A DNA stretch of 64,000 nt from an uncultured Candidatus Saccharibacteria bacterium (GCA_964505635.1 CAZDIP010000001.1:116386-180385), one strand, 5' to 3'. Positions 34 through 50,681 are shown, numbered from the stretch's first letter. Made by a program: numbers and translations. The notes: generated from the letters alone by a model not told the origin.

Positions 34-1432
34 CTATTTTATTGCCAATTCCTGGCCGTTGAAATGTTGTATAACTTTGTAAATTTTTTGTAAATAATTG
101 ACTGTTTCTTGCCTTAAGGCGGCTGGTTGTAAAGTATCCAGCTGAGAGTTTATGCCGGCTAATTCGGTTTGGGCTTTAGCAAGCTGGGATTTTAGGCTGT
201 TTTGAGTTTTTTTGTCAGGAGCCTTTTTAATTTTTGCTTTTAAATTTTTTATTTGCGTATTAGCTTTGTTGGCCTGGTCTTTTAGTATCGCAATTTGTCC
301 ATTACGATCTTCATTCCAGGTATCCCCAAAAGCATTGACCGCTCTGGCCACTCTGGTCGTTCCGCCATTGTAAGAAGCCGCGGCATAGTCAAAAACTCGG
401 CCAGAGGCAAAGCCGTAACTCGCCTTGATTCTCACCGCTCCCGCGTAGTCGTCCAGCAGTAAATACATGGCTTTTATAGCATTTCTGTGATCCGACATGC
501 CGTCTACAAAATTTGCTATTAAGTTTAAATCAGCATGTCTTTTAACCAGCGATTCGTAGGTGGAAGGAATAAATTGGGCTATTCCGCGTGCGCCGGCGGA
601 AGAAACGCTGTATTTATAGGTATCGCCTGTATTTAAAGCCAGTAAAATATTTAACTGGTTAATTGTGCCCTGGGCATTATTGTTAACTAGCACTTGCGCG
701 GTGTCTGTATGTTCGGCATAAACCAGTGCTTTTATTAAACTCGGTTTTATGGCTTCGGTGATGGTAAGTCCCGGCACTGCTTGGGAGGGAATATGGCTTA
801 AACTTTGGGCAACGTCTGAAATTACATTATTTAAGTAATTCGCGCCGTAATTTAAAACATCCGAAGAATTGAAATTTGGATTATAAGGCACATATAAAGC
901 ATCATAAATACCGGCTTCAATTTTTGCTTTGTTGCCGCTCTCCGGATTAGTAATTAAATATTTTATTGCAATGACTTGGGCGTTTTCAGGCTTTGTTACT
1001 GAAAACCGGCTATTTACTCCGTTAAACCTGACCAAGCTAACCTCTGTATCACTTTTGGGGAAAGTCATGGTCTTGCCGTTTTGTTTACCCACCACAATTT
1101 TTATGTTGTTAGTGTTGGGGTCTAATACTGCAACAGCAATATCCTTGCTGGTTAAATTGTAGGAAGAAATGGTCTTTGTTGTTTTACCGGTTTTTTTGTT
1201 CTTTACGTTTTTGTAAACCGGAGTTAAACTATAACTCAATTTTATCTGGCTTAATTTTGCTTTTGCTTCCGCAGCGGCGAGGATCAAAGAAGGTGCCGTG
1301 CTCGTGCTTTGCCCTAAAATTAAAGTCGGCGTTGTTGAAGCCTGAACCGAATTTGAAAAATTTATCAGGCCTAGGCCTGATAATAAAGTTGCGCACAAAA
1401 ATAAAAGACAATTTTTTGTTTGTAATTTCATG
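34..1432 (-). CDS. secreted lytic transglycosylase (SLT domain) with C-terminal coiled-coil region
   Basis: Signal-peptide-like N-terminus MKLQTKNCLLFLCATLLSG..VQA. SLT-type motif AEH ... SSAGARGIAQFIPSTYESL. The internal Met at 1432 is preferred over the track start at 1482. Confidence 0.6.
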
Positions 1433-1463
1433 CTATTATTATAACATATCAATTTTTCGTTCC

Positions 1464-2912
1464 ATGACCAATTTAGTAACAAAAAATATATTTTGGCTCA
1501 GCTTTTCCAGAATTTCCGCGTTAGTAATGCTCTTTTTTGCCTATACTCAGTTGTTTAGGTATTTGGGTCCTGAAATCTACGGCCAGTACCAGTTTGTTTT
1601 GTCCTATGTAATGCTTTTTTCCACAGTGGTTGACTTCGGTATTCAGCAGTTTATTCAAAAAAAAATCAGTGAAGAACCGGCTAAAACAAAAAAGTATTTC
1701 CAAGATTTTTTAAATTTTGAAATTTTTGCAGCCGGGTTTTTGTTTGGCGCCTTAATTTTAATTGCTTACTTAAATAGTTACCCGAGGGAAATTTTTTACG
1801 GCATACTTGTGGCGGGTTTTGGTATGTCTATAAATGCATTATGCTATCCCTACTTGGCTGTCATGTCCGCTTTCCAGGATTTAAAAAAAGTAGCGTTAAT
1901 AAATTTTATTAACTCGTTTGTTAACATTACGATAATTTTTTTAGCAATTTGGCTAAAATTTGAAATTGTGTTTTTGGCCGCTATTCAGTTGGTGTTTGGC
2001 GCGGTTGATTTAATCCTGTATAAGGTTTTTACAAAAAAATATTTAAAAAACAACCAACAACCCTACCAGTTTAGAGGTTTTTTTGTGGATATAGTTGGGA
2101 TTTTAAAAAAAGGCTGGCCGTTTGTACTCCTGGTAGGTTTTAGCTCTATTTATAATCGCATAGACATGGTAATTATTTCCCACTTAAAAGGCTTTGAACA
2201 GACAGGTTATTATGCAGCGGCATACAAGCTTTTTGATCTTTTGGCTTTTTTCCCCGCCATAGTTTCGCACGCCTTATACCCCTTTTTTGCCGCCAGCGTT
2301 GCTAAAAATTTATTTTTTGAAATTAAAGAAACTTTGGAAAAATATTTAAGACTTATGTTTTTGCTGGCGTTACCCATGGCAGTCGGCGGAACCTTATTGT
2401 CGGAGGGTTTAATTAAGCTGATTGCCGGACCTGAATATTTATCGGCCGCTCCCGTGTTCGCGATTTTGATTTGGGCAGCGGCTTTGTTATTTATGTATAT
2501 TCCCTTAAACGCCTTTGTCATTTCGCAGTTTACTAAAAAAGCGGCCTTTATAACCGGCGTAAATGTTTTTTTAAATATCGCCGGTAATTTGTTTTTTATG
2601 GGTTATCTGGGTTATGGAATTTGGAGCGCTGCCGTAATGACAATTTTAAGCGAATTATTACAGGGCGCATTTTACTTTTATTTGGTTAAGACTAAGTTAA
2701 ATGGCCTGGTTTTTAAAAAAAATTTTTGGCCTCCTTTTTTCGCTTCAGCGGGAATGGGGGTCATTTTATATTTTTTGAAACCGGCAAATTTAGTATTTGG
2801 TTTGTTAACAGGCGGTTTTACCTACCTAATTCTTTTATTTTTAATGGGCTATATAAAAAAAACGGACATTCTTTTTATTCAGTCTTTTATATCGCTGAAA
2901 AAGCATGACTAA
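1464..2912 (+). CDS. Wzx-like polysaccharide flippase (MOP superfamily membrane protein)
   Basis: About 482 aa, polytopic, hydrophobic. N-terminus MTNLVTKNIFWLSFSRIS is typical of O-unit flippases. The track start at 1176 would overlap the divergent gene, so the ATG at 1464 is used. Confidence 0.55.
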   Translation: MTNLVTKNIFWLSFSRISALVMLFFAYTQLFRYLGPEIYGQYQFVLSYVMLFSTVVDFGIQQFIQKKISEEPAKTKKYFQDFLNFEIFAAGFLFGALILIAYLNSYPREIFYGILVAGFGMSINALCYPYLAVMSAFQDLKKVALINFINSFVNITIIFLAIWLKFEIVFLAAIQLVFGAVDLILYKVFTKKYLKNNQQPYQFRGFFVDIVGILKKGWPFVLLVGFSSIYNRIDMVIISHLKGFEQTGYYAAAYKLFDLLAFFPAIVSHALYPFFAASVAKNLFFEIKETLEKYLRLMFLLALPMAVGGTLLSEGLIKLIAGPEYLSAAPVFAILIWAAALLFMYIPLNAFVISQFTKKAAFITGVNVFLNIAGNLFFMGYLGYGIWSAAVMTILSELLQGAFYFYLVKTKLNGLVFKKNFWPPFFASAGMGVILYFLKPANLVFGLLTGGFTYLILLFLMGYIKKTDILFIQSFISLKKHD

Positions 2913-5095: not shown

Positions 5096-6385
5096 ATGGA
5101 TTTATTTTTATTTTTCCTATTTATTGCATTAGCTTTTGGTTTTTTTTGCTTTTTTGTCAGGGGGCCTTACAAGCAAAGTCCTTTATGGCTTATGTTTTCA
5201 GCATGGATGTTGGCCTTGGGTGTACCAAGACTTAATTTATCCCGAATTGAACGTCCCGGAAGTTTTGAATTTTGGATTTTGGTTTTTTTGTCATTGGCAA
5301 GTTTTGCTTTCGGGTTTTTTGTTTTTAAAGCCTGGGCTGATAAGTGGAAAATTTGGGCGCAAATTGCCACTTATTTCAATAACGAGATTTCCCTAAAAAC
5401 TTTACGTATTGTTATCTATATTTTGTGCCTAATTTCTTTAGCCGCTCTTTATTTATTTTATGAAAAAGCCGGAAATTTTCCGCTGTTAGATGTTAGTCCC
5501 GACGAGTTTAGATTTGCGGCGGATGAAAAAGTTCCAGGCTTAATTAATTATTCCGCCCAGCTTGCCAGGTTATTTGTGCCTTTATCTTTTTATCTTATTC
5601 TTAAAGAAGGTTTTGTATTTAAAAAACACCTGGATTTAGTTATTATTAATTTGGTTGGGATATTTGCCCTGATTTTGTTTGCTTCAAGAACCCAGATATA
5701 TTTTATTGACCTGTGGGTTATGGCCTTGTATTTATTTATAAGAAAACCAGACTTAAAAAGGGCTTTAAAATTTTATCCGATCTTTTTGTTAATATCAGTC
5801 GTGGTTCTTTCAGCAATTCCTTTAATAAGACAAGCAAAAAGCTATGGTAGCGACTATTTGGCCGACATAACGGAAATTGACAGCAGGAATTTTTCAAGGC
5901 CAGCGAAACTTTTATTGCCAATTTATGTTGGAATTTCGTTTAATATGCAGGCTCTTATGCACGCAGAGGAATATTATCAACATAACCCTTTGCAAAAAGG
6001 CAAGGTCAGCATGCATCCTTTTACTAATATGCTAGGGCTGAAAAATTTAAAACCGGAATTTGATTTGGGCAAAATTTTTAAACCATGGTGGAATACCGGG
6101 ACTTATTTATTTCCCTTCATTCAGGATTTTGGACGGGTGGCGTTTTTTGCGGTGCCGTTTTTGTTCGCCGGTGTTTTTACAATTTTGTGGAAATTTTTAC
6201 AGACAAACGCTAATTTTTTATCCATAAATTTTTATGCTTACGTTTGCTTTTTTATAGTAATGAGTATTTATTTGTCATTTACAGTAAGAGCTGAAATGTA
6301 CATGGATATTTTTTTTATTTTTCTAATTTATTTTCTAACAAAAAAACCAAACACTAGGTTGCTAGATAGTAACCTAGTGAAATAA
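5096..6385 (+). CDS. Wzy-like O-antigen/oligosaccharide polymerase family membrane protein
   Basis: Polytopic membrane protein with no catalytic motif, located between glycosyltransferases. Assignment rests on context and topology only. Confidence 0.4.
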   Translation: MDLFLFFLFIALAFGFFCFFVRGPYKQSPLWLMFSAWMLALGVPRLNLSRIERPGSFEFWILVFLSLASFAFGFFVFKAWADKWKIWAQIATYFNNEISLKTLRIVIYILCLISLAALYLFYEKAGNFPLLDVSPDEFRFAADEKVPGLINYSAQLARLFVPLSFYLILKEGFVFKKHLDLVIINLVGIFALILFASRTQIYFIDLWVMALYLFIRKPDLKRALKFYPIFLLISVVVLSAIPLIRQAKSYGSDYLADITEIDSRNFSRPAKLLLPIYVGISFNMQALMHAEEYYQHNPLQKGKVSMHPFTNMLGLKNLKPEFDLGKIFKPWWNTGTYLFPFIQDFGRVAFFAVPFLFAGVFTILWKFLQTNANFLSINFYAYVCFFIVMSIYLSFTVRAEMYMDIFFIFLIYFLTKKPNTRLLDSNLVK

Positions 6386-12450: not shown

Positions 12451-13620
12451 ATGAACCTAGAATTTTACAATTGTCCCAAGCCGGAAGAGTTTGACAAAAA
12501 GCTTTTGCCGAAAGAAAAACCTTTGTTTGTAAATTACCAACCGGATTTCGGTTTGCTAAAAAAACTCACGGAAGAATATAAAAACTTTGAAAATATTTTA
12601 ATCGTGGCCCACGGCGGCAGCATAAACCCCCTATTGGGTATTTACAACGCTTTATATTATCAAAGCCAAAAAAAAGTTTATTTTTTAAACACTGTTGACC
12701 CTGACTATATACATAAGCTTAAAACGGAATTAAACCCAAATAATACTTTGGTTGTTTCTATAAGCAAGTCCGGTGAAACCGTGACCCAACTGGAAGAAAC
12801 TTTTGCTTTTGCTAAATATCCAATCTTAGTAGTGACTGGTAAAGCGAGCCCTTTAAGAGCCATGGCAGACAAGATGAAGTGGGCGGTCATTACACATCCT
12901 CCCATTGGAGGACGTTATACTGCTTTAACAGAAGTTAATTTGCTCGGGGCAGCGCTGGCCGGCTTGGATGTAGAAGGTTTATACCAAGGCGGACAAGAAT
13001 TTTACAACCTTTACGAAAAAGAAAATTTGGCCTGGAAAGCGGCTTCGGTTTTTTATCAGCTAGAGCAAAAAGGCTACGCGGATGTGCTAATGCTTTTTTA
13101 TTCGCATTTTTTATTTCCTTCAAGTTTTGGCATAGTACAGTTATGCCACGAAAGTTTTGGAAAAAACGGCAAAGGCCAGAGTTATTTTGCGCACGAAGGT
13201 CCGGAGGTCCAGCATCATACTATGCAAAGGTACTACGGCGGGCAAAAAAATATTGCCGGCTTATTTGTTACAGCGGATAATTTTATAAATTCCCAAGTAA
13301 CTAATTATCCGCCTCAGGCACACAGTACGCAAATTAAGGGCCATCATTTGGCAGACATAGATAAAATTCCTTTAAAGTATGCTATTTTGGCTGAAGCTTC
13401 GGCAAGCATCGAGGATTCAAGAATTAGGGGAATACCGTGTGTCCATATGTCTCTGGATAATTTTTCAGCTCAAGAAATTGGAAAATTTAACGCTTTTTGG
13501 CAATTGTTCGCGGTTTATTCTTCGCTTTTAAGGCAAGTAGACCCGTTTGACCAGCCTGAAGTGGAAAACAGCAAAAAAATTAGTTTTAGTAAAAGATTAC
13601 AGTATAAAGGTTTATTGTAA
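12451..13620 (+). CDS. pgi: glucose-6-phosphate isomerase (short SIS-domain type)
   Basis: SISKSGETVTQLEE (SKSGxTxE) and IGGRYTALTEVNLLGAALAG (GGRYS..SAVG-like). Confidence 0.65.
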   Translation: MNLEFYNCPKPEEFDKKLLPKEKPLFVNYQPDFGLLKKLTEEYKNFENILIVAHGGSINPLLGIYNALYYQSQKKVYFLNTVDPDYIHKLKTELNPNNTLVVSISKSGETVTQLEETFAFAKYPILVVTGKASPLRAMADKMKWAVITHPPIGGRYTALTEVNLLGAALAGLDVEGLYQGGQEFYNLYEKENLAWKAASVFYQLEQKGYADVLMLFYSHFLFPSSFGIVQLCHESFGKNGKGQSYFAHEGPEVQHHTMQRYYGGQKNIAGLFVTADNFINSQVTNYPPQAHSTQIKGHHLADIDKIPLKYAILAEASASIEDSRIRGIPCVHMSLDNFSAQEIGKFNAFWQLFAVYSSLLRQVDPFDQPEVENSKKISFSKRLQYKGLL

Positions 13621-13667: not shown

Positions 13668-15314
13668 ATGACCCCTTCTATTTATATAAATTTAGAAGAT
13701 GATGTAGCAAAAGTTGTAGCCAGGATTAAAAGAGAAAAAAACCCTAGCTTAATTTTGGTTTGTCCAAAACGCTGTTTTTTATTTAACGACAGTATCAATT
13801 TAAGATTGTTAAAAAAACAAACAGAGTTACTAAACAAAGAGGTTTTTATTTTAACCATGGACGAACGGGGCCAGATATACGCAAAAGAAGCGGGTTTTGG
13901 TTTGAAATTTTTGCCTCAGAATAAAAAAGCAGCAGGTTTTACGGATATTCAAAGATCTGTAAAACCCTTAGCTGCCACTATTCAACCAGCCGATAAAAAC
14001 ACAAAAAACGGCCAAAAAAAAGAATCTCAGGCCAACAAACTTACTAAAGGAGGCTTTGCGGCGGCCGAGCCCATAAAAACTCAAGCCAAAGATTTAATTT
14101 TTTCAAAAGAGATAGAAACAACCTATGAGGCAAGAAAGAGAAAAATTTCAAATCAAAGAAAAGTTTTTTTTCTTCTTGGTGCTTGTCTTATTACCGCAGC
14201 TGTTTTAATTATCCTGGTTTTACCTAAGGCCGTACTAACAGTTACAGCAAAGTCAGAACCTATCTCCAGGGAATTATCTATCGGCATTTCTGTAACTAAC
14301 GAGTCTGTGGATGTGGCAAGGTTGTCTATGCCGGCAGTTAAAATTTCCGAGAAACTTCAGGTCAGTAGAAAGTTTACAGCCCAAGGTAAAAAAGAAATTG
14401 GCAATAAGGCATCAGGTTTAGTAAGAATATATAATTTTACTAAGCAACCACTAAATTTGAAAGAATCGACAACCAGCTTAATTTTAGGGAACAGAACCTA
14501 TAAATTAGTTAAAGATGCGATGGCCGTCAAGCCTACTATATACAAAAATCAGATTACCAAAGAAGTTGATGAAAGCAGTCTGGACGCGGTTTTTGAAATT
14601 ATTGCCACTGAAGGAGGAGAGTCTTACAATATACCCAGCGGCACAAGAATAGAGGTTACTAACCAGGTTTTCGGCAGCAGGCCTCAATTTTTATATGCAA
14701 AAACTGAAACCCCAATAATAGGAGGAACTTCCCGGTATTTATCTGTTTTGTCTCAGCTGGATTTGGACTTTGCCAGAAATGAACTTGGAAATGATTTAAT
14801 TACAAGACTAAATGAGAATTTAAAATCCAGAGATTTGAGCGTAGTGGAGAAAGCTTATTCTCTTGAAAATATTGAATTTATAACCGACAAGCAGATAGGT
14901 TCGGAAACCCCAAGTTTTACAGCCAATTTAACCGCGGATGTTACAGCGCTAGCTTTTAATTTAAATCAAATGAATGAGTTGGTTTTTGAAAGGGTAAAAC
15001 AAACCGTGCCTGAAAATAAAAAGGTTTTAGGAGGTTTAAGTCAAAACCTTTCTTATAGGCTTAAATCGGTTGACTTGCCAGCAGCTTCGGGGGTTATATT
15101 GGCAAATTATTCCTCCGTCATGGTTTATGAACTTGATTTGTCAGGCTTGAAAGAAAAATTGACCGGAAAAAGCAGGTCCAAGGTTCAGGAAATATTGCTA
15201 TCACGGCCCGAGGTTGAGGCTGTTGAAATGATTTTGGCGCCTTCTTGGCAAAACTCCTTTCCTTTATTAAAGAGCAGAATCGAGATAAAAGAAGAAAATT
15301 TGGAAAAAAATTGA
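13668..15314 (+). CDS. hypothetical membrane-anchored protein (single TM, large C-terminal domain)
   Basis: ORF with one TM segment (VFFLLGACLITAAVLIILVL) about 160 aa in. No recognisable motif. Confidence 0.4.
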   Translation: MTPSIYINLEDDVAKVVARIKREKNPSLILVCPKRCFLFNDSINLRLLKKQTELLNKEVFILTMDERGQIYAKEAGFGLKFLPQNKKAAGFTDIQRSVKPLAATIQPADKNTKNGQKKESQANKLTKGGFAAAEPIKTQAKDLIFSKEIETTYEARKRKISNQRKVFFLLGACLITAAVLIILVLPKAVLTVTAKSEPISRELSIGISVTNESVDVARLSMPAVKISEKLQVSRKFTAQGKKEIGNKASGLVRIYNFTKQPLNLKESTTSLILGNRTYKLVKDAMAVKPTIYKNQITKEVDESSLDAVFEIIATEGGESYNIPSGTRIEVTNQVFGSRPQFLYAKTETPIIGGTSRYLSVLSQLDLDFARNELGNDLITRLNENLKSRDLSVVEKAYSLENIEFITDKQIGSETPSFTANLTADVTALAFNLNQMNELVFERVKQTVPENKKVLGGLSQNLSYRLKSVDLPAASGVILANYSSVMVYELDLSGLKEKLTGKSRSKVQEILLSRPEVEAVEMILAPSWQNSFPLLKSRIEIKEENLEKN

Positions 15315-20822: not shown

Positions 20823-21202
20823 GCTCTAAGCAAACTCATAAGCCGAATTCTGTTTACCCAAAATAAATTTTAGGTTTAATAATCATCTATCTGCCGTCGG
20901 TATTACTACCGAGGTCAAGCAGCCTACCAAATTTGGCCTTGCACTCAAGTAAGGATTTAGCCGTTTCACCTCAAATATTTCTATAAGAGATCGCCCTGTC
21001 ATTTTTGACAGGGCGTTTTATTTCTTTCGAAATAAAACGTTTCTGTTCGCACCTCGCGTTTTACAACGGACGGGTGTTACCCGCTACTCTTTTGATAACT
21101 CTATAGAGGTCATCAATAAGTGTTCGGACTTTCCTCCCCATTCATTGTTTGCAAAATTTTGCAGCTTCCAATCAATGGGCGATTATTCGGTTTGCTTAGA
21201 GC
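20823..21202 (-). ncRNA. rnpB: RNase P RNA (bacterial type A-like)
   Basis: On the minus strand: 13-bp P1 helix between 21190..21202 and 20823..20835. P4 5' strand GAGGAAAGUCCGAAC (rc of 21121..21137) and P4 3' strand ACAGAAUUCGGCUUAU (rc of 20839..20854). GGUAGGCUGCUUGA (P15-like, rc of 20905..20918). GGUGCG and a GAAA-tetraloop hairpin. Length is about 380 nt. Confidence 0.85.
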
Positions 21203-46014: not shown

Positions 46015-46024
46015 CAAATTTTTT

Positions 46025-46052
46025 AAAAAGCCTCTTAATTAAGAGGCTTTTT
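46025..46052. terminator. perfect palindromic terminator AAAAAGCCTCTT-AATT-AAGAGGCTTTTT
   Basis: Read directly, after secF. Confidence 0.7.
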
Positions 46053-46068
46053 AAATTTATTAGTATAA

Positions 46069-46097
46069 TTGACAAGTTTAAAGCTTTATGCTATACT
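46069..46097 (+). promoter_or_regulatory. sigma-70-like promoter TTGACA-N17-TATACT
   Basis: Read directly. Heads the three-gene module 46137..50330. Confidence 0.5.
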
Positions 46098-46136
46098 AAA
46101 TTAAATTTATTCTTCCTTCGTCACACAGTAAAACAT

Positions 46137-47219
46137 ATGGGAATTTTAGATACAATAATCACCACTAAACAGCAGCAATCTTTAAACGAGTTTGAGCCCT
46201 CTAAAGTAGTAGAGGAGTTGTTTGGAACTTTAAAAGAACGGGATAAGCAAATTCTTCTTTACAGATACGGCCTTTTGGGCAGGCCTGCAAAAACATTGGC
46301 TTCCATTGGGCAAGAACATAATTTAACAAGGGAAAGAGTCAGGCAAATAGAAAAAGACATAATTAAACAACTTAGAAAAACTTCGCTTTCGGCTAAAAAT
46401 TTTGTTTTAACAAAAGATTTTTTATTAAATATTATTGCGGAACACGGAAAAGTCATCGCTGAAGAAAATTTATTTTTATTTTTAAATCTAAAAGAACAAT
46501 CTGAAAAAAACGCTGTAATTTTCTTATTGAGCCTGATTGATGAAATAGAAAATTTCATCCACGAAAATTATAAAAAAGCTTGGGTTCACACTCTTTTTAA
46601 GAACGAAATACTCCATAATTTCGTTAAAGAAAGCAGGTTAATTTTTGAATCTAAAAAAATACCTCTTAGTGCTGAGGAATTCTTAGAACATTTTAGACAG
46701 ACAGATTTTTTTACCCAAAACAAGCAAGATTTAAACGACAAAATTTTGCTAAATTTTTTGGATTTGGCTGTGGAAATAGAAAAGAATGTTTTTGGTTTTT
46801 GGGGTTTGGACTATTGGAAAGAAGTTAAGCCAAAAGACGTGGGCGATAAGGCCTATTTGGTGATGAAATATCACAAAAAACCCGAGCACTATGCTCAAAT
46901 AACCGAAATGATAAATAAGGCGAACTTTGACAGCCGCATAGCTTATAAAGAAACAGTTCACAATGAGTTAATTAAAGATAAACGATTTATTTTAATAGGC
47001 CGGGGTATTTATGCTCTTTCCGAATGGGGATACAAACCCGGCGTAGTAGCAGATGTTATCCGCGAAGTGTTGGCTGAGTCCAAAGAGCCGATGACAAAGG
47101 AAAAAATTATTGAGGAGGTTTTAAAACGAAGAATGGTCAAAAAGAATACTATTTTAGTTGGCTTATCGGATAAAACACAATTTCAAAAAATCGGAAAAAA
47201 TTTGTTTTCCCTGGTTTAA
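46137..47219 (+). CDS. DNA-binding protein with N-terminal sigma-70 region-4-like HTH and C-terminal HARE-HTH-like domain
   Basis: ERDKQILLYRYGLLGRPAKTLASIGQEHNLTRERVRQIEKDIIKQLRK (region 4). C-terminal ILIGRGIYALSEWGYK (GRGxYxL HARE-HTH signature). Confidence 0.5.
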   Translation: MGILDTIITTKQQQSLNEFEPSKVVEELFGTLKERDKQILLYRYGLLGRPAKTLASIGQEHNLTRERVRQIEKDIIKQLRKTSLSAKNFVLTKDFLLNIIAEHGKVIAEENLFLFLNLKEQSEKNAVIFLLSLIDEIENFIHENYKKAWVHTLFKNEILHNFVKESRLIFESKKIPLSAEEFLEHFRQTDFFTQNKQDLNDKILLNFLDLAVEIEKNVFGFWGLDYWKEVKPKDVGDKAYLVMKYHKKPEHYAQITEMINKANFDSRIAYKETVHNELIKDKRFILIGRGIYALSEWGYKPGVVADVIREVLAESKEPMTKEKIIEEVLKRRMVKKNTILVGLSDKTQFQKIGKNLFSLV

Positions 47220-47239
47220 GTCAAAGCAAAAGAAATAAA

Positions 47240-48571
47240 ATGAATCAAACCATAAATATTGTTCCAGATATTTTCGAAATTTTCCGTATTTTCGGCGTTT
47301 TGTTCATTAAAGGCGGTTGGGTTTTGTTCGCCATAATGATAGTTTATTTACTTTGGAGGTCATATTTACATGAAATTCAACATCAATACGTTCATAGCCA
47401 GGAATGGATTTTTTTAAACATAAAAGTTCCCAAAGAAAATCTTGTAAGTACGCTAGCCGTAGAAACCATTTTTACCCAGATGCACGCGCTACACTCAGCA
47501 AAAACTTTTGCCGATAGATTTGTAGAGGGTCAAATTCAGCTTTGGTACAGCCTTGAAGTGGTTAGTTTAGGCGGCAAAGTTTCTTTAATCATGCGTATTC
47601 CGAAAAAAGTTAAAGAGTTAGTGGAAGCAGCTTTTTATTCTCAATATCCGCAAGCTGAAATTGACGAATGCGACGACTATCTCTCTAATTTTAATTACGA
47701 TCCAAACAATCCGGGGGAATACGAAATTTGGGGGACAGAGTGGAAACTCTTGGAATCGGACGTGATTCCTTTAAAAACTTATCGGGATTTTGAACATCCC
47801 GCGGCCGAAGAAAGCATTATTGACCCTCTTTCAAATTTTTTTGAAGCTATGGGAAAAATGGCTCCTTACGAACTTTTTTCTGTGCAAATAATAATTCAGC
47901 CTTTAGGTGATGAGGAATGGAAGCCGAAAGGAGAGGCTAAAATAAAAGATTTGATAGGGGAGGAACCAGTACATGAAGTTTCTTTTACAGGAGCAGCCTT
48001 ATCGCCGCTTTCAAAATTTTCCCAATTTAGTTACAAAAATGCCGTATTGGGAGGAGGACATGGACACGGAACCGAAGAAAATAAGCCTAAAAATAACTGG
48101 CTTAATATGACCGAGGCTGAAAAAGAGCGCGTTACTTTAGTAGAACGAAAAATCAGCAAACCAGGCTATAAAACAAAAATTCGTTTTTTGTATATTGCCC
48201 CTAAAGACTTATTTGATCCGAACAAAAAGAGTTTGGTTATTGGAGCCTATCGTCCATTAGGGTCATCAATGACTAATAAACTTAAGCCTGATGGAAAAAC
48301 TTGGACGGGTGTTGAATACAAATTTTCGAAAAATCTGGAGAAAAGTTATCTAGATTGGTTACTTAATAAAAAGAAAAGGTATATTATAAAAGGCTTTAAA
48401 TCCAGGGAAATTCACATAGGTTCTCCCATGTTTATATTAAATGTTGAAGAAATTGCAACTTTATATCATTTCCCAATAACTACTAAAACTACTACGGTAC
48501 CTTCTGCTATAGAAAAAACCATGGCTCGCAAGGCTCAGCCGCCAACCAACTTACCAATAGCCGAACAATAA
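47240..48571 (+). CDS. hypothetical membrane-anchored protein (single N-terminal TM)
   Basis: ORF with TM segment GVLFIKGGWVLFAIMIVYLLW. No known motif. Confidence 0.4.
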   Translation: MNQTINIVPDIFEIFRIFGVLFIKGGWVLFAIMIVYLLWRSYLHEIQHQYVHSQEWIFLNIKVPKENLVSTLAVETIFTQMHALHSAKTFADRFVEGQIQLWYSLEVVSLGGKVSLIMRIPKKVKELVEAAFYSQYPQAEIDECDDYLSNFNYDPNNPGEYEIWGTEWKLLESDVIPLKTYRDFEHPAAEESIIDPLSNFFEAMGKMAPYELFSVQIIIQPLGDEEWKPKGEAKIKDLIGEEPVHEVSFTGAALSPLSKFSQFSYKNAVLGGGHGHGTEENKPKNNWLNMTEAEKERVTLVERKISKPGYKTKIRFLYIAPKDLFDPNKKSLVIGAYRPLGSSMTNKLKPDGKTWTGVEYKFSKNLEKSYLDWLLNKKKRYIIKGFKSREIHIGSPMFILNVEEIATLYHFPITTKTTTVPSAIEKTMARKAQPPTNLPIAEQ

Positions 48572-48575
48572 AAAC

Positions 48576-50330
48576 ATGGATAACACCGAAAACAAAATTA
48601 CGGTTTTTGCTAAAACAAATTTCCGAAATAAGGAAGTCGCTTTTGGCATAAAAACGGACGATCGCCGCAGGCATATGTACCTGATTGGAAAAACCGGCAT
48701 GGGAAAAACAACCATGATGGAAAACATGGTTATTCAGGATATTCGCAATGGAAACGGGGTAGCCTTTTTAGATCCCCATGGGGATTCTATTCAAAGAATA
48801 CTAAATTCTATTCCTTCCAGCCGAGTTAATGATGTCATCCACTTTAATCCCGCTGATCTGGAATATCCAGTCGCTTTTAACATCTTAGAAGCGGTTGATG
48901 CAAAATATAAGCACTTAGTTGCTAGTGGATTAATGGGTGTGTTTACAAAAATTTGGGCGAATTTGTGGTCAGCAAGAATGGAATATATCTTAAATAATAC
49001 CATCCTAGCTCTTTTAGACAGTCCTGGTAACACGCTTTTAGGTATTACACGCATGTATGTGGATAAAAAATATCGGAAGCGAATTGTTGATAATATTAAA
49101 GACCCGATGGTTAAAGCCTTTTGGGTGGACGAATTTGCCAATTATAACGAAAAGTATAGAACCGAAGCAATTGCCCCGATCCAAAATAAAGTTGGACAAT
49201 TTTTGTCTTCCGGAATCATCAGAAATATTGTTGGCCAGCCTAAAAGTACCATAGATTTAAGGGAAATCATGGACAAAAGAAAAATATTGATTATGGATTT
49301 ATCCAAAGGAAAAGTAGGCGAAGATAATTCTGCTCTATTGGGTGCGATGATAGTAACAAAGCTGCAGTTGGCCGCTATGTCCAGAACCGACATACCCGAA
49401 CACGAAAGGAAAGATTTCTATCTTTATGTGGATGAGTTTCAAAATTTTGCCACCGAAAGCTTTGCGACAATTTTAAGCGAGGCCAGGAAGTATAGATTAA
49501 ACTTGATTGTCGGGCACCAATATATTGCTCAGCTTGAACAAGATAAAAATACTAAGGTTAGGGACGCGATTTTTGGCAACGTTGGATCAATAGTACTTTT
49601 TCGCATAGGAGCAGCTGATGCGGAATTTTTAGAAACTGAGTTTGATCCCATTTTTACGCCAAATGATATGGTTAACCTGCCTAAATACCAGATTATTTTA
49701 AAGCTAATGATTAACGGCGTAGCCAGCGAGCCTTTTTCTGCAATTACTTTACCCCCTAGTCCCGATTATTACACAGGTAATATGGAAAAGGTCATAAAAG
49801 TTTCAAGGGAACGATACTCGAATTCAGTGACAGAAGTTGAAGAAAAAATATCCCGGTGGATGGGGGCTGAATTCCACCAGGAAACCGCGGTGTTGGTTGG
49901 CGATGTTTTGGTATCTCAAAAAACGGGGCAAGATAATCAAACTAAAATTCCCGAGTTTGAAAAGGAAGCTTCCGATGCTGATGACAAAAATTCCAAAGAA
50001 CCAAAAAGAAACGAGGTATTAAAATCTGAGAAAAAACCCCAAAATCCCGTCCAGCACCTAATTCAGGATGAAAAAGATAAAATTAAAAAATCAAAGCATT
50101 CAGTTAGTAAAATAGGACGGGTGAAAAAAGAGAATCCAATTTGGAATACCGTAGCGCAAATTAATCATACAAAAATTAAAGAAATTTTTGAAAAAAAAAT
50201 TCCTGAAAATAATGCACAAACTTCAGTTGTTAACGACAATAAAAAAAATTCAGGCGCTTCGGAAATAAAATTAGGATCTAGCAACCAGCCAACAGTTTTA
50301 GAACCCGGTAAAACTCATCTTATTAACTAA
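48576..50330 (+). CDS. soluble TraG/VirD4/TraD-like (type IV coupling protein family) P-loop ATPase
   Basis: Walker A IGKTGMGKTT. Walker B YLYVDEFQNF followed by ARKYRLNLIVGHQ (TraG-D_C-like). No TM helices. Lys/Glu-rich C-terminal tail. Confidence 0.55.
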   Translation: MDNTENKITVFAKTNFRNKEVAFGIKTDDRRRHMYLIGKTGMGKTTMMENMVIQDIRNGNGVAFLDPHGDSIQRILNSIPSSRVNDVIHFNPADLEYPVAFNILEAVDAKYKHLVASGLMGVFTKIWANLWSARMEYILNNTILALLDSPGNTLLGITRMYVDKKYRKRIVDNIKDPMVKAFWVDEFANYNEKYRTEAIAPIQNKVGQFLSSGIIRNIVGQPKSTIDLREIMDKRKILIMDLSKGKVGEDNSALLGAMIVTKLQLAAMSRTDIPEHERKDFYLYVDEFQNFATESFATILSEARKYRLNLIVGHQYIAQLEQDKNTKVRDAIFGNVGSIVLFRIGAADAEFLETEFDPIFTPNDMVNLPKYQIILKLMINGVASEPFSAITLPPSPDYYTGNMEKVIKVSRERYSNSVTEVEEKISRWMGAEFHQETAVLVGDVLVSQKTGQDNQTKIPEFEKEASDADDKNSKEPKRNEVLKSEKKPQNPVQHLIQDEKDKIKKSKHSVSKIGRVKKENPIWNTVAQINHTKIKEIFEKKIPENNAQTSVVNDNKKNSGASEIKLGSSNQPTVLEPGKTHLIN

Positions 50331-50358
50331 AATTCCCCCGCCTAGGCGGGGGAATTTT
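50331..50358. terminator. perfect palindrome AATTCCCCCGCC-TAG-GCGGGGGAATT, bidirectional terminator
   Basis: Read directly between the convergent ATPase gene (+) and trxA (-). Confidence 0.7.
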
Positions 50359-50360
50359 AG

Positions 50361-50681
50361 TTAAAGATACTTGTCTATTTCTGTTTTAAGTATTTCCTTT
50401 GGAGCAGCTCCGACAATTTCCCCAACAACCTTTCCTGCTTTAAAAATTTTTAAAGTTGGGATACTCATTACCCCATATTGTGAAGCTAAGGCATTGTTTT
50501 CATCTACATTTACCTTACCTATTTTTAACTTTCCCTGGTAATCTTGAGACAATTCTTCAACAATCGGTCCAATAATTTTACATGGACCGCACCAAACTGC
50601 CCAAAAATCCACCAATACCGGCACTTGGGAGTCTAAAACTTCATTTTTAAAATTAGATTCGCTTAATTTAATTGTTGGCAT
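50361..50681 (-). CDS. trxA: thioredoxin
   Basis: VDFWAVWCGPCK active site. Confidence 0.85.
   Translation of the reverse strand: MPTIKLSESNFKNEVLDSQVPVLVDFWAVWCGPCKIIGPIVEELSQDYQGKLKIGKVNVDENNALASQYGVMSIPTLKIFKAGKVVGEIVGAAPKEILKTEIDKYL

Follow-up and report, generated by a model that had tools for sequence, protein, structure and literature searches.

How a motor of the conjugative coupling-protein type comes to lie, free of any membrane anchor, among the housekeeping genes of a bacterial chromosome is the question raised by a stretch of 64,000 nucleotides from an uncultured Candidatus Saccharibacteria bacterium (GCA_964505635.1, CAZDIP010000001.1:116386-180385; hereafter, the window, meaning the whole stretch). 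Proteins identical or nearly identical to those of the window were found in metagenome-assembled genomes (MAGs) of Candidatus Doudnabacteria and Patescibacteria. Three open reading frames (ORFs) on the + strand, here called P1, P2 and P3, follow one another with spacings of 20 nt (P1-P2) and 4 nt (P2-P3). A preliminary description had taken them for a terminator-insulated module of a sigma-like DNA-binding protein, a membrane protein and a soluble ATPase, the last two possibly forming a split coupling protein. In the reading that we prefer, to which we give a probability of about one half, P2, with a predicted fold like the N-terminal domain of VirB4, and P3, a motor of the VirD4/TrwB type, make up a two-domain ATPase encoded in a core operon with P1. 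The protein features are as follows (HTH, helix-turn-helix).

46137-47219, + strand: P1, 360 aa, with sigma-70 region 4, then two HARE-HTH winged helices joined to it by a helical linker (Pfam, NCBIfam)
46224-46379, + strand: P1 sigma-70 region 4 HTH, residues 30-81 (PF04545, E 1.8e-12)
46845-47168, + strand: P1 tandem HARE-HTH, residues 237-297 and 303-344 (PF05066 in two stretches, E 1.6e-10)
47240-48571, + strand: P2, 443 aa, DUF8128 (PF26449), predicted to cross the membrane once, with a large alpha/beta domain in the cytoplasm
47288-47356, + strand: P2 transmembrane helix, residues 17-39, with an invariant GGW motif (KD19 2.33)
47402-48484, + strand: P2 cytoplasmic domain, about residues 55-415 (about 360 aa), predicted VirB4-like fold, with conserved EE(L/I)ATLYHFP at its end
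48576-50330, + strand: P3, 584 aa, soluble P-loop ATPase of the TrwB/VirD4 type, its tail disordered (Pfam TrwB_AAD_bind, DUF87, TraG-D_C)
48597-49904, + strand: P3 motor core, residues 8-443, with Walker A at nt 48687-48713 and Walker B (DEFQNF) at nt 49431-49448
49908-50327, + strand: P3 low-complexity tail rich in K, N and E, residues 445-584, with a conserved ENPIW patch

The Pfam matches of P3 are to TrwB_AAD_bind (E 1.3e-13, residues 27-344), DUF87 (8e-8) and TraG-D_C, and the protein carries GKTGMGKTT at residue 38, DEFQNF at 286 and RKYR (as ARKYR) at 304. Since the Walker A motif starts at residue 38, P3 has no membrane domain, and no hydrophobic segment was found in it (maximum KD19 1.32); the preliminary description had been right to call it a coupling-family ATPase without a membrane anchor. 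In NCBIfam the matches are to models of TraD and VirD4-like proteins and fall far short of the cutoffs in every case; the best are SXT_TraD (50.5 bits, cutoff 366) and CD1115 (35.5 bits, cutoff 250). Against PDB sequences, both the single protein and a 31-member phylum-wide profile returned only TrwB, as the best match, and then DotL/IcmO. The hhalign alignment of P3 with TrwB (residues 118-394 of the latter) is 259 columns long, starting at Walker A and continuing beyond Walker B, with a probability of 94.6%, whereas the probability for TrwK/VirB4 is 2.5%. Because TrwB and DotL are the sole PDB matches and TrwB so clearly outranks VirB4, the motor is, as judged from its sequence, of the coupling-protein type and not that of FtsK, HerA or VirB4. 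An FtsK/HerA identity was rejected on this ranking, in which the DUF87 match is also weaker than that to TrwB_AAD_bind.

Identity in the core of P3 ranges from 64 to 91% when Doudnabacteria-type loci and L082, the GTDB locus that diverges most, are compared, and full-length identity to other Patescibacteria lineages is about 50-60%. The interval between Walker A and Walker B (residues 100-235) is predicted to be helical, consistent with an all-alpha domain. In other classes the position of the low-complexity tail is taken by a treble-clef zinc finger (PF23477). Its consensus is CxxCGK...FxPD..RP..CxxC, with examples at L082:7434-9182, L084:6313-8466 and L088:8236-10254.

Two lines of evidence, fusion and adjacency, indicate that P2 and P3 belong together. 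In the phage profile phrog_5156 (824 positions) the first half matches P2 and the second half P3, and gp156 of Bacillus phage G (825 aa) is collinear with P2 and P3 in a single chain: residues 8-323 correspond to the DUF8128 family (E 2e-13 and 98% probability in hhalign), and residues 373-780 to P3, with 27% identity. SPO1 gp27.4 (906 aa) has the same fused layout, with a weak match in the P2 part (probability 40%). These phage proteins and their relatives in phrog_5156 are homologues of P2 and P3, but unlike P2 they have no transmembrane helix, nor do they have a sigma4-HARE-HTH neighbour. In bacterial genomes, where the preliminary description had suggested looking for co-occurrence, P3 lies directly 3' of P2 at 69 of 71 evaluable Doudnabacteria-type loci and at 38 of 49 distant loci, with a median gap of 16.5 nt. 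The loci comprise 80 from GTDB and 80 metagenomic ones chosen as distant; adjacency counts for P1, P2 and P3 are to be taken as indications rather than frequencies, because pattern-based retrieval biases the sample. On this comparison of sequences P2 and P3 are one unit, the halves of one machine. The idea of a split coupling protein thus survives in the pairing of the two proteins, but not in the nature of the membrane-bound half, as P2 resembles the VirB4 N-terminal domain in predicted fold and has no sequence similarity to the transmembrane domain of coupling proteins.

Some features of the phage loci may be recorded here. In SPO1 (L171, gp27.9-gp27.3), gp27.4 has on one side a partition protein of the actin-like ALP_N/Alp7A kind and on the other gp27.3, a nickase with a Replic_Relax domain (PF13814) whose annotation reads 'replication initiation by nicking'; the pairing of gp27.4 with gp27.3 resembles that of a coupling protein with a relaxase, within a lytic phage. 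In phage G (L083), gp156 is misannotated as an 'MsbA-like permease', and directly upstream of it gp155 encodes a VirB4-like ATPase (AAA_10, P-loop_TraG, weak CagE_TrbE_VirB). Among viral contigs, the P2 alignment found no match; the P3 alignment picked out 15 P3-like ATPases that stand alone, for which no DUF8128 neighbour could be detected. One of these contigs (L172:5956-7254; GC content 0.42; holin and M23 peptidase genes) encodes a 432-aa homologue 60% identical to the motor core of the window, followed by a PLD-like nuclease and again with no DUF8128 neighbour detectable; it may be a phage of the Candidate Phyla Radiation (CPR) with a captured host motor. The other 14 contigs hold more distant stand-alone relatives of P3.

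P2 is the less familiar half. The assignment to DUF8128 comes from the precomputed PF26449 annotation of a database protein identical to P2 (P0121) and of its homologues; a local Pfam scan gave no match, the PF26449 model being absent from the Pfam set used. No mention of DUF8128 or PF26449 was found in the literature. An exhaustive search with a hidden Markov model (HMM) places P2 in a family of 2538 clusters at 50% identity, 804 of them at E <= 1e-30. Each of the best 150 clusters is a stand-alone protein, 208-656 aa in length (the shorter sequences are partial), and one comes from a Parcubacteria MAG. Residues 17-39 form the sole hydrophobic segment of the protein, in agreement with the single-span, 443-aa protein of the preliminary description, and within them G26 and W27 are invariant in the alignment. 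In the AlphaFold2 (AF2) model (pLDDT 75.9, pTM 0.74) a long helix, residues 11-53, is followed by an alpha/beta domain. The large domain is probably cytoplasmic, in an N-out/C-in topology, because its counterpart in phage G is fused to a cytoplasmic ATPase.

When the P2 model was compared with PDB structures using Foldseek, the top 13 matches, without exception, were to TrwK/VirB4 chains from the type IV secretion system (T4SS) of R388, with E values from 1.4e-4 to 5e-3 and probabilities of 0.97-1.0; the next matches were unrelated, with E > 0.02. Among the predicted viral structures of BFVD, the best matches include phage G gp156 (3e-16) and proteins of Bacillus phages JL and Slash; others are the VirB4-like gp155 of phage G (4e-6) and a protein labelled 'component of type IV transporter system' (1e-3). 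The match is placed in the N-terminal half of VirB4 because P2 has no P-loop and the phage homologues match through their N-terminal parts. These predictions give moderate support to the cytoplasmic domain of P2 having a fold like that of the VirB4 N-terminal domain, which is not to say that P2 is a member of the VirB4 family.

Set beside known systems, the pair P2-P3 resembles two families and falls within neither. The P-loop motor, the Walker A and B motifs and a downstream arginine-containing segment are common to P3 and the type IV coupling proteins (TrwB of R388, VirD4, TraD/TraG, DotL). Those proteins, however, carry an N-terminal two-helix membrane domain in cis, whereas P3 has none and the only transmembrane helix is on the separate P2; canonical coupling proteins have no DUF8128 domain, whereas P3 is partnered with or fused to one; and they are carried on mobile elements, whereas P3 belongs to the chromosomal core. 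P3 also scores below the cutoff of every curated coupling-protein model, and no relaxase or mating-pair genes lie nearby. The other likeness is to VirB4 (TrwK of R388), in which an N-terminal alpha/beta domain that attaches to the membrane complex is followed by a C-terminal motor. P2-P3 has the same layout, the predicted fold of P2 matches only TrwK chains in the PDB apart from unrelated weaker hits, and its transmembrane helix recalls VirB3-VirB4 fusions. Here, however, two separate polypeptides are found, with no sequence similarity to VirB4 in either half and no CagE_TrbE_VirB match in Pfam. The coupling-protein homologues and the DUF8128 family are already on record; their obligate partnership, a VirB4-like fold predicted for DUF8128 and a phylum-wide operon with a sigma4-HARE-HTH protein have not, as far as we found, been described before.

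The three genes are set apart from their neighbours by sequence elements upstream and downstream.

46022-46055, no strand: hairpin 3' of secF, with A- and T-runs beside it, a probable bidirectional intrinsic terminator
46069-46097, + strand: candidate sigma-70-type promoter, TTGACA-N17-TATACT with extended -10 TG, 40 nt 5' of the P1 start
50323-50364, no strand: 42-nt palindrome covering the stop codons of P3 and the convergent thioredoxin gene, a probable bidirectional terminator

The hairpin 3' of secF has 15 perfect pairs and a 4-nt loop (free energy, dG, -18 kcal/mol; z = -4.35), and the palindrome at the end of P3 has, whichever strand is folded, a dG of about -32 kcal/mol and a z of about -7.4; for each, 0 of 200 shuffles was as good. 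The palindrome had been missed by a consensus terminator scan because its T-tail has only 4 T. The promoter boxes (TTGACA at 46069-46074, TATACT at 46092-46097) score 11/12 with the TG and are joint best with one other 11/12 site in an 8.5-kb scan. Consensus matches across that scan are at chance level (29 found, 26 expected), so that conservation across relatives is the real test of the promoter. In homologous secF-P1 spacers from related genomes a hairpin (dG <= -8) is kept in 60 of 60, with varying stem sequences, and TTGACA-17/18-TG-TATACT/TATAAT is present in 40 of 60; neither element can thus be put down to chance, both being conserved. Transcription would start at the 46069-46097 promoter, a position taken from the motif. 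P1-P2-P3 forms a self-contained unit of transcription, with a promoter of its own and a terminator on either side, and the terminators and promoter of the preliminary description stand.

The same unit recurs widely. P1 lies directly 5' of P2 at 69 of 69 Doudnabacteria-type loci; at distant loci secF is found directly 5' of P2, with no P1 between, in 17 of 58. The gene order secD-secF-P1-P2-P3 recurs in Parcubacteria-type and other lineages despite differing downstream genes, and a terminator-like hairpin is usually found 3' of secF across loci. P1-P2-P3 is thus a core chromosomal operon across the Patescibacteria (CPR) phylum, often with secDF upstream. A phylum-wide block among housekeeping genes makes both a defence system and a mobile element unlikely. 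The preliminary description had regarded the genes as typical of CPR bacteria and as no canonical conjugation set, and both views hold, the block being phylum-wide and no relaxase or mating-pair genes having been found in the window or the related loci examined. It had also named what would speak against it, an FtsK/HerA-type ATPase in a context unrelated to the two neighbours; the closest relatives are instead TrwB and DotL, and the conserved context includes both neighbours.

Further observations on these loci concern individual lineages. The secD-secF pair is directly upstream of P1-P2-P3 or P2-P3 in L084, L085, L087, L089 and many of L090-L169. In non-Doudnabacteria lineages SecD has inserted PpiC-type rotamase domains, which are absent from L001, a relative of the window SecD. 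One sub-lineage (L078, L079, L099, L117, L122 and others) keeps P1-P2, with a GT4 glycosyltransferase and then a DUF4012 protein in place of P3.

P1 joins two modules that contact DNA or RNA polymerase, sigma-70 region 4 and a HARE-HTH domain resembling that of the RNA polymerase delta subunit (RpoE). The fusion had been correctly described: both domains are matched in Pfam, and the GRGIYAL motif occupies residues 288-294. Region 4 matches solely the C-terminal ends of the NCBIfam RpoD and RpoS models, far below cutoff, and TIGR04567, the model of the delta N-terminal domain, matches residues 237-297 (E 1.4e-6; 28.3 bits against a cutoff of 42). P1 differs from these relatives in having no sigma regions 1-3, and hence no promoter melting, no acidic delta tail, and its HARE-HTH at the C-terminus where that of RpoE is N-terminal. 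No hydrophobic segment was found in P1. No sigma region 2 was found either (only region 4 was matched in Pfam and NCBIfam), so that P1 cannot be a sigma factor and was rejected as one. The architecture had been called unusual, which it is not: it is kept in 34 of 34 diverse P1 orthologues and marks a core, Patescibacteria-enriched family. Aravind and Iyer reportedly described the combination of sigma4 and HARE-HTH already in 2012.

Genetic data are available for what appear to be the same genes in Southlakia epibionticum (Wang et al. 2023, PMC10633639). SEML1_0294 (349 aa, Sigma70_r4 and HARE-HTH) was essential at all time points of transposon sequencing (Tn-seq). The adjacent SEML1_0293 (921 aa) has TrwB_AAD_bind, TraG-D_C and DUF87 from near residue 400, with a P-loop domain from near residue 361 and about 360 unannotated N-terminal residues (PMC10633639); it was non-essential in co-culture, with normalised reads falling from 5817 to 1372, a drop of about four-fold that hints at some cost, and both genes are flagged as core and Patescibacteria-enriched (PMC10633639, Tables S1/S2). 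As in the window, the sigma4-HARE-HTH gene is directly upstream of the ATPase gene, and the ATPase has the same three domains as P3; it differs in having a long N-terminal region where the window has separate P2 and P3. From synteny and domains, SEML1_0294 is the orthologue of P1 and SEML1_0293 that of P2-P3, probably in fused form. A second TraG-D_C or 'TraM recognition' ATPase of this organism, SEML1_0142 (PMC10633639, Table S2), has its P-loop at residues 381-800 and a long N-terminal region, so that long ATPases of the coupling type may be present in Patescibacteria as two paralogues.

An essential P1 orthologue beside a dispensable ATPase suggests that the main role of P1 is general, in transcription or in the nucleoid, and goes beyond that of an accessory. 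We predict that P1 is probably a general factor binding DNA or RNA polymerase; its tie to P2-P3 may be one of co-transcription alone, with any role in ATPase function secondary. The three-gene module of the preliminary description is therefore upheld as an operon, but P1 is not simply one of its components.

We read the observations (domain identities, P2 and P3 fused or side by side, conservation, transcription signals) as the marks of the two-domain ATPase proposed above. In such a machine P2 would dock a P3 ring on the cytoplasmic side of the membrane, much as the N-terminal domain of VirB4 docks the VirB4 motor; ATP hydrolysis by P3 would drive the handling, remodelling or translocation of a polymer; and the complex could act alone or feed a VirB4-type T4SS encoded elsewhere in the genome. 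P1 would bind DNA, RNA polymerase or both, and would be transcribed from the same conserved promoter as P2-P3. For the substrate we favour DNA over protein, at roughly three to two, because of the TrwB-like motor, the C-terminal zinc finger in many orthologues, the nickase and partition neighbours in SPO1 and the co-encoded, DNA-binding P1.

Several points weigh against this reading. The TM-scores of the P2 matches are modest, about 0.3-0.5 (TMq 0.28-0.38 in the PDB). The P2-family profile gave no significant alignment with TrwK/VirB4 (hhalign probability 0.2% for P2-TrwK) or with gp155, and a P2 profile search of PDB sequences gave no match; the likeness to VirB4 is therefore one of predicted structure. 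Foldseek returned no VirB4 residue range for the match, which probably falls in the N-terminal half. The AF2 model of P3 is unreliable (pLDDT 45, from a low-diversity alignment of 22 sequences) and was not used for a fold search. The link between P2 and P3 is one of genes; a physical complex of the two, and a hexamer of P3, are predictions. Among diverse loci, 11 of 49 have no P3 directly after P2, and P1 is adjacent in only 32 of 58. The case for a functional module of three genes is weakened further because P1 is essential independently of the ATPase, and the dispensability of the ATPase in S. epibionticum co-culture implies that its function is conditional. Finally, the conserved secDF neighbour points to protein export and leaves room for a role of that kind.

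A bolder form of the preferred two-domain ATPase is offered tentatively. P2-P3 would here be a self-contained translocase, a hybrid VirB4/VirD4 lineage present throughout the phylum, with a VirB4-type N-domain retained on a VirD4-type motor, independent of the VirB4 T4SS and functionally tied to the essential sigma4-HARE-HTH protein, for example a motor for DNA export or import or for coupling the nucleoid to the membrane in episymbionts.

An alternative that we regard as possible, if doubtful, makes P2-P3 the dedicated coupling protein of a patescibacterial VirB4-type T4SS encoded at a distance, with P2 docking on the partners of VirB4 (VirB3/VirB6/VirB8-like). It would account for the coupling-protein type of P3 and for the VirB4-like predicted fold of P2, and the survey of Quiñonero-Coronel et al. 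(2025, PMC12102498) marks one Doudnabacteria genome as VirB4-positive (Table S1) and finds coupling genes often away from virB4. The same survey, however, counts 5713 homologues of VirD4-type coupling proteins, which occur in 2918 of the 3035 Patescibacteria genomes (about 96%), against 2417 with VirB4, and only 148 of the 5713 are near virB4; relaxases are nearly absent from the phylum, and the authors do not exclude exaptation of the homologues for another function (PMC12102498). In S. epibionticum, moreover, T4SS genes are essential whereas SEML1_0293 is not (PMC10633639). At the locus itself, no relaxase, VirB4, VirB6 or second coupling protein was found in the 64-kb window by Pfam scans of about 30 ORFs and by tblastn with R388 and phage queries, a result that leaves out three larger Pfam-less ORFs and small ORFs; this agrees with the preliminary description, which had seen neither relaxase nor VirB4. 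Relaxase and mating-pair-formation genes were likewise absent from the related loci examined.

It is improbable that P2-P3 is, together with P1, a housekeeping DNA pump or nucleoid-membrane tether comparable to FtsK, SpoIIIE or HerA and serving segregation, repair or uptake. The high identity of the motor core across Doudnabacteria-type loci, the core status and housekeeping synteny of the genes, the DUF87/HerA match with a weak one to CedD, and the co-encoded P1 would all suit such a pump, but the best matches of P3 are TrwB and DotL, the ATPase is non-essential in S. epibionticum, and transformation in that organism depends on ComEC and type IV pili (PMC12857230).

Quite improbable, in our view, is a role for P2-P3 in protein export with SecDF, for example by feeding a membrane channel or clearing it, with P1 an unrelated passenger. 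In its favour, secF lies <=3 kb upstream of P2 in 25 of 42 diverse loci and sometimes, as noted, directly upstream of it without P1, and secA is in the window; some T4SS and coupling proteins also move proteins. The strong conserved terminator and the separate promoter between secF and the operon speak against it, as do the lack of similarity to any Sec component and the phage homologues, which have no Sec context and in SPO1 stand beside a nickase.

An anti-phage module, in which a HARE-HTH sensor of modified DNA would act with an ATPase effector, is very improbable and was rejected on its context of SecDF, thioredoxin and cell-wall gene neighbours: PADLOC reports mad8 of MADS for P3 (3.4e-16) and MzaA of MZA for the sigma4 region of P1 (1.6e-8), and HARE-HTH domains do occur in restriction enzymes (PMC11037411), but these are single-domain matches, neither full gene set nor any nuclease, methylase or other partner is present at the locus, and the genes form a single-copy core set throughout the phylum, in a fixed housekeeping gene order, with an essential P1 orthologue. 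The defence option of the preliminary description is unlikely.

The remainder of the window is ordinary core chromosome. On the 5' side of P1 it encodes MurB, SecA, HD, NUDIX, CYTH and Ham1 proteins, an M1 peptidase, SecD and SecF; 3' of P3 come thioredoxin (- strand), a peptidase of the penicillin-binding protein 5 (PBP5) type, MraY, a Mur ligase and FtsW; and farther away are alanyl-tRNA synthetase (AlaRS), MurJ, LepA and the RNase P RNA. The last of these, at 20823-21198 on the - strand, is a bacterial class A RNase P RNA (115 bits). No tRNA genes were found anywhere in the 64 kb. Three + strand ORFs have no Pfam match at E <= 1e-5 (5096-6385, 429 aa; 12451-13620, 389 aa; 13668-15314, 548 aa). 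At the start of the window two long ORFs on opposite strands, 34-1482 (-) and 1176-2912 (+), overlap by about 300 nt; the latter is a polysaccharide/MurJ-type flippase and the former may be spurious.

The finding explains a known oddity, and no new principle is revealed by it yet. The orphan VirD4-like coupling homologue of Patescibacteria gains a constant partner, DUF8128, encoded apart from the motor in some cases and fused to it in others. A structural context is thereby given to this Pfam domain, and bacterial genes are linked to unexplained fused homologues in large Bacillus phages. If the hybrid lineage suggested above were to prove true, P2-P3 would be a living intermediate bearing on the origin of coupling proteins from VirB4-like ancestors. 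Mutants should be obtainable, since S. epibionticum is genetically tractable and its ATPase dispensable, and what had been an oddity of annotation becomes a defined, testable machine of two parts.

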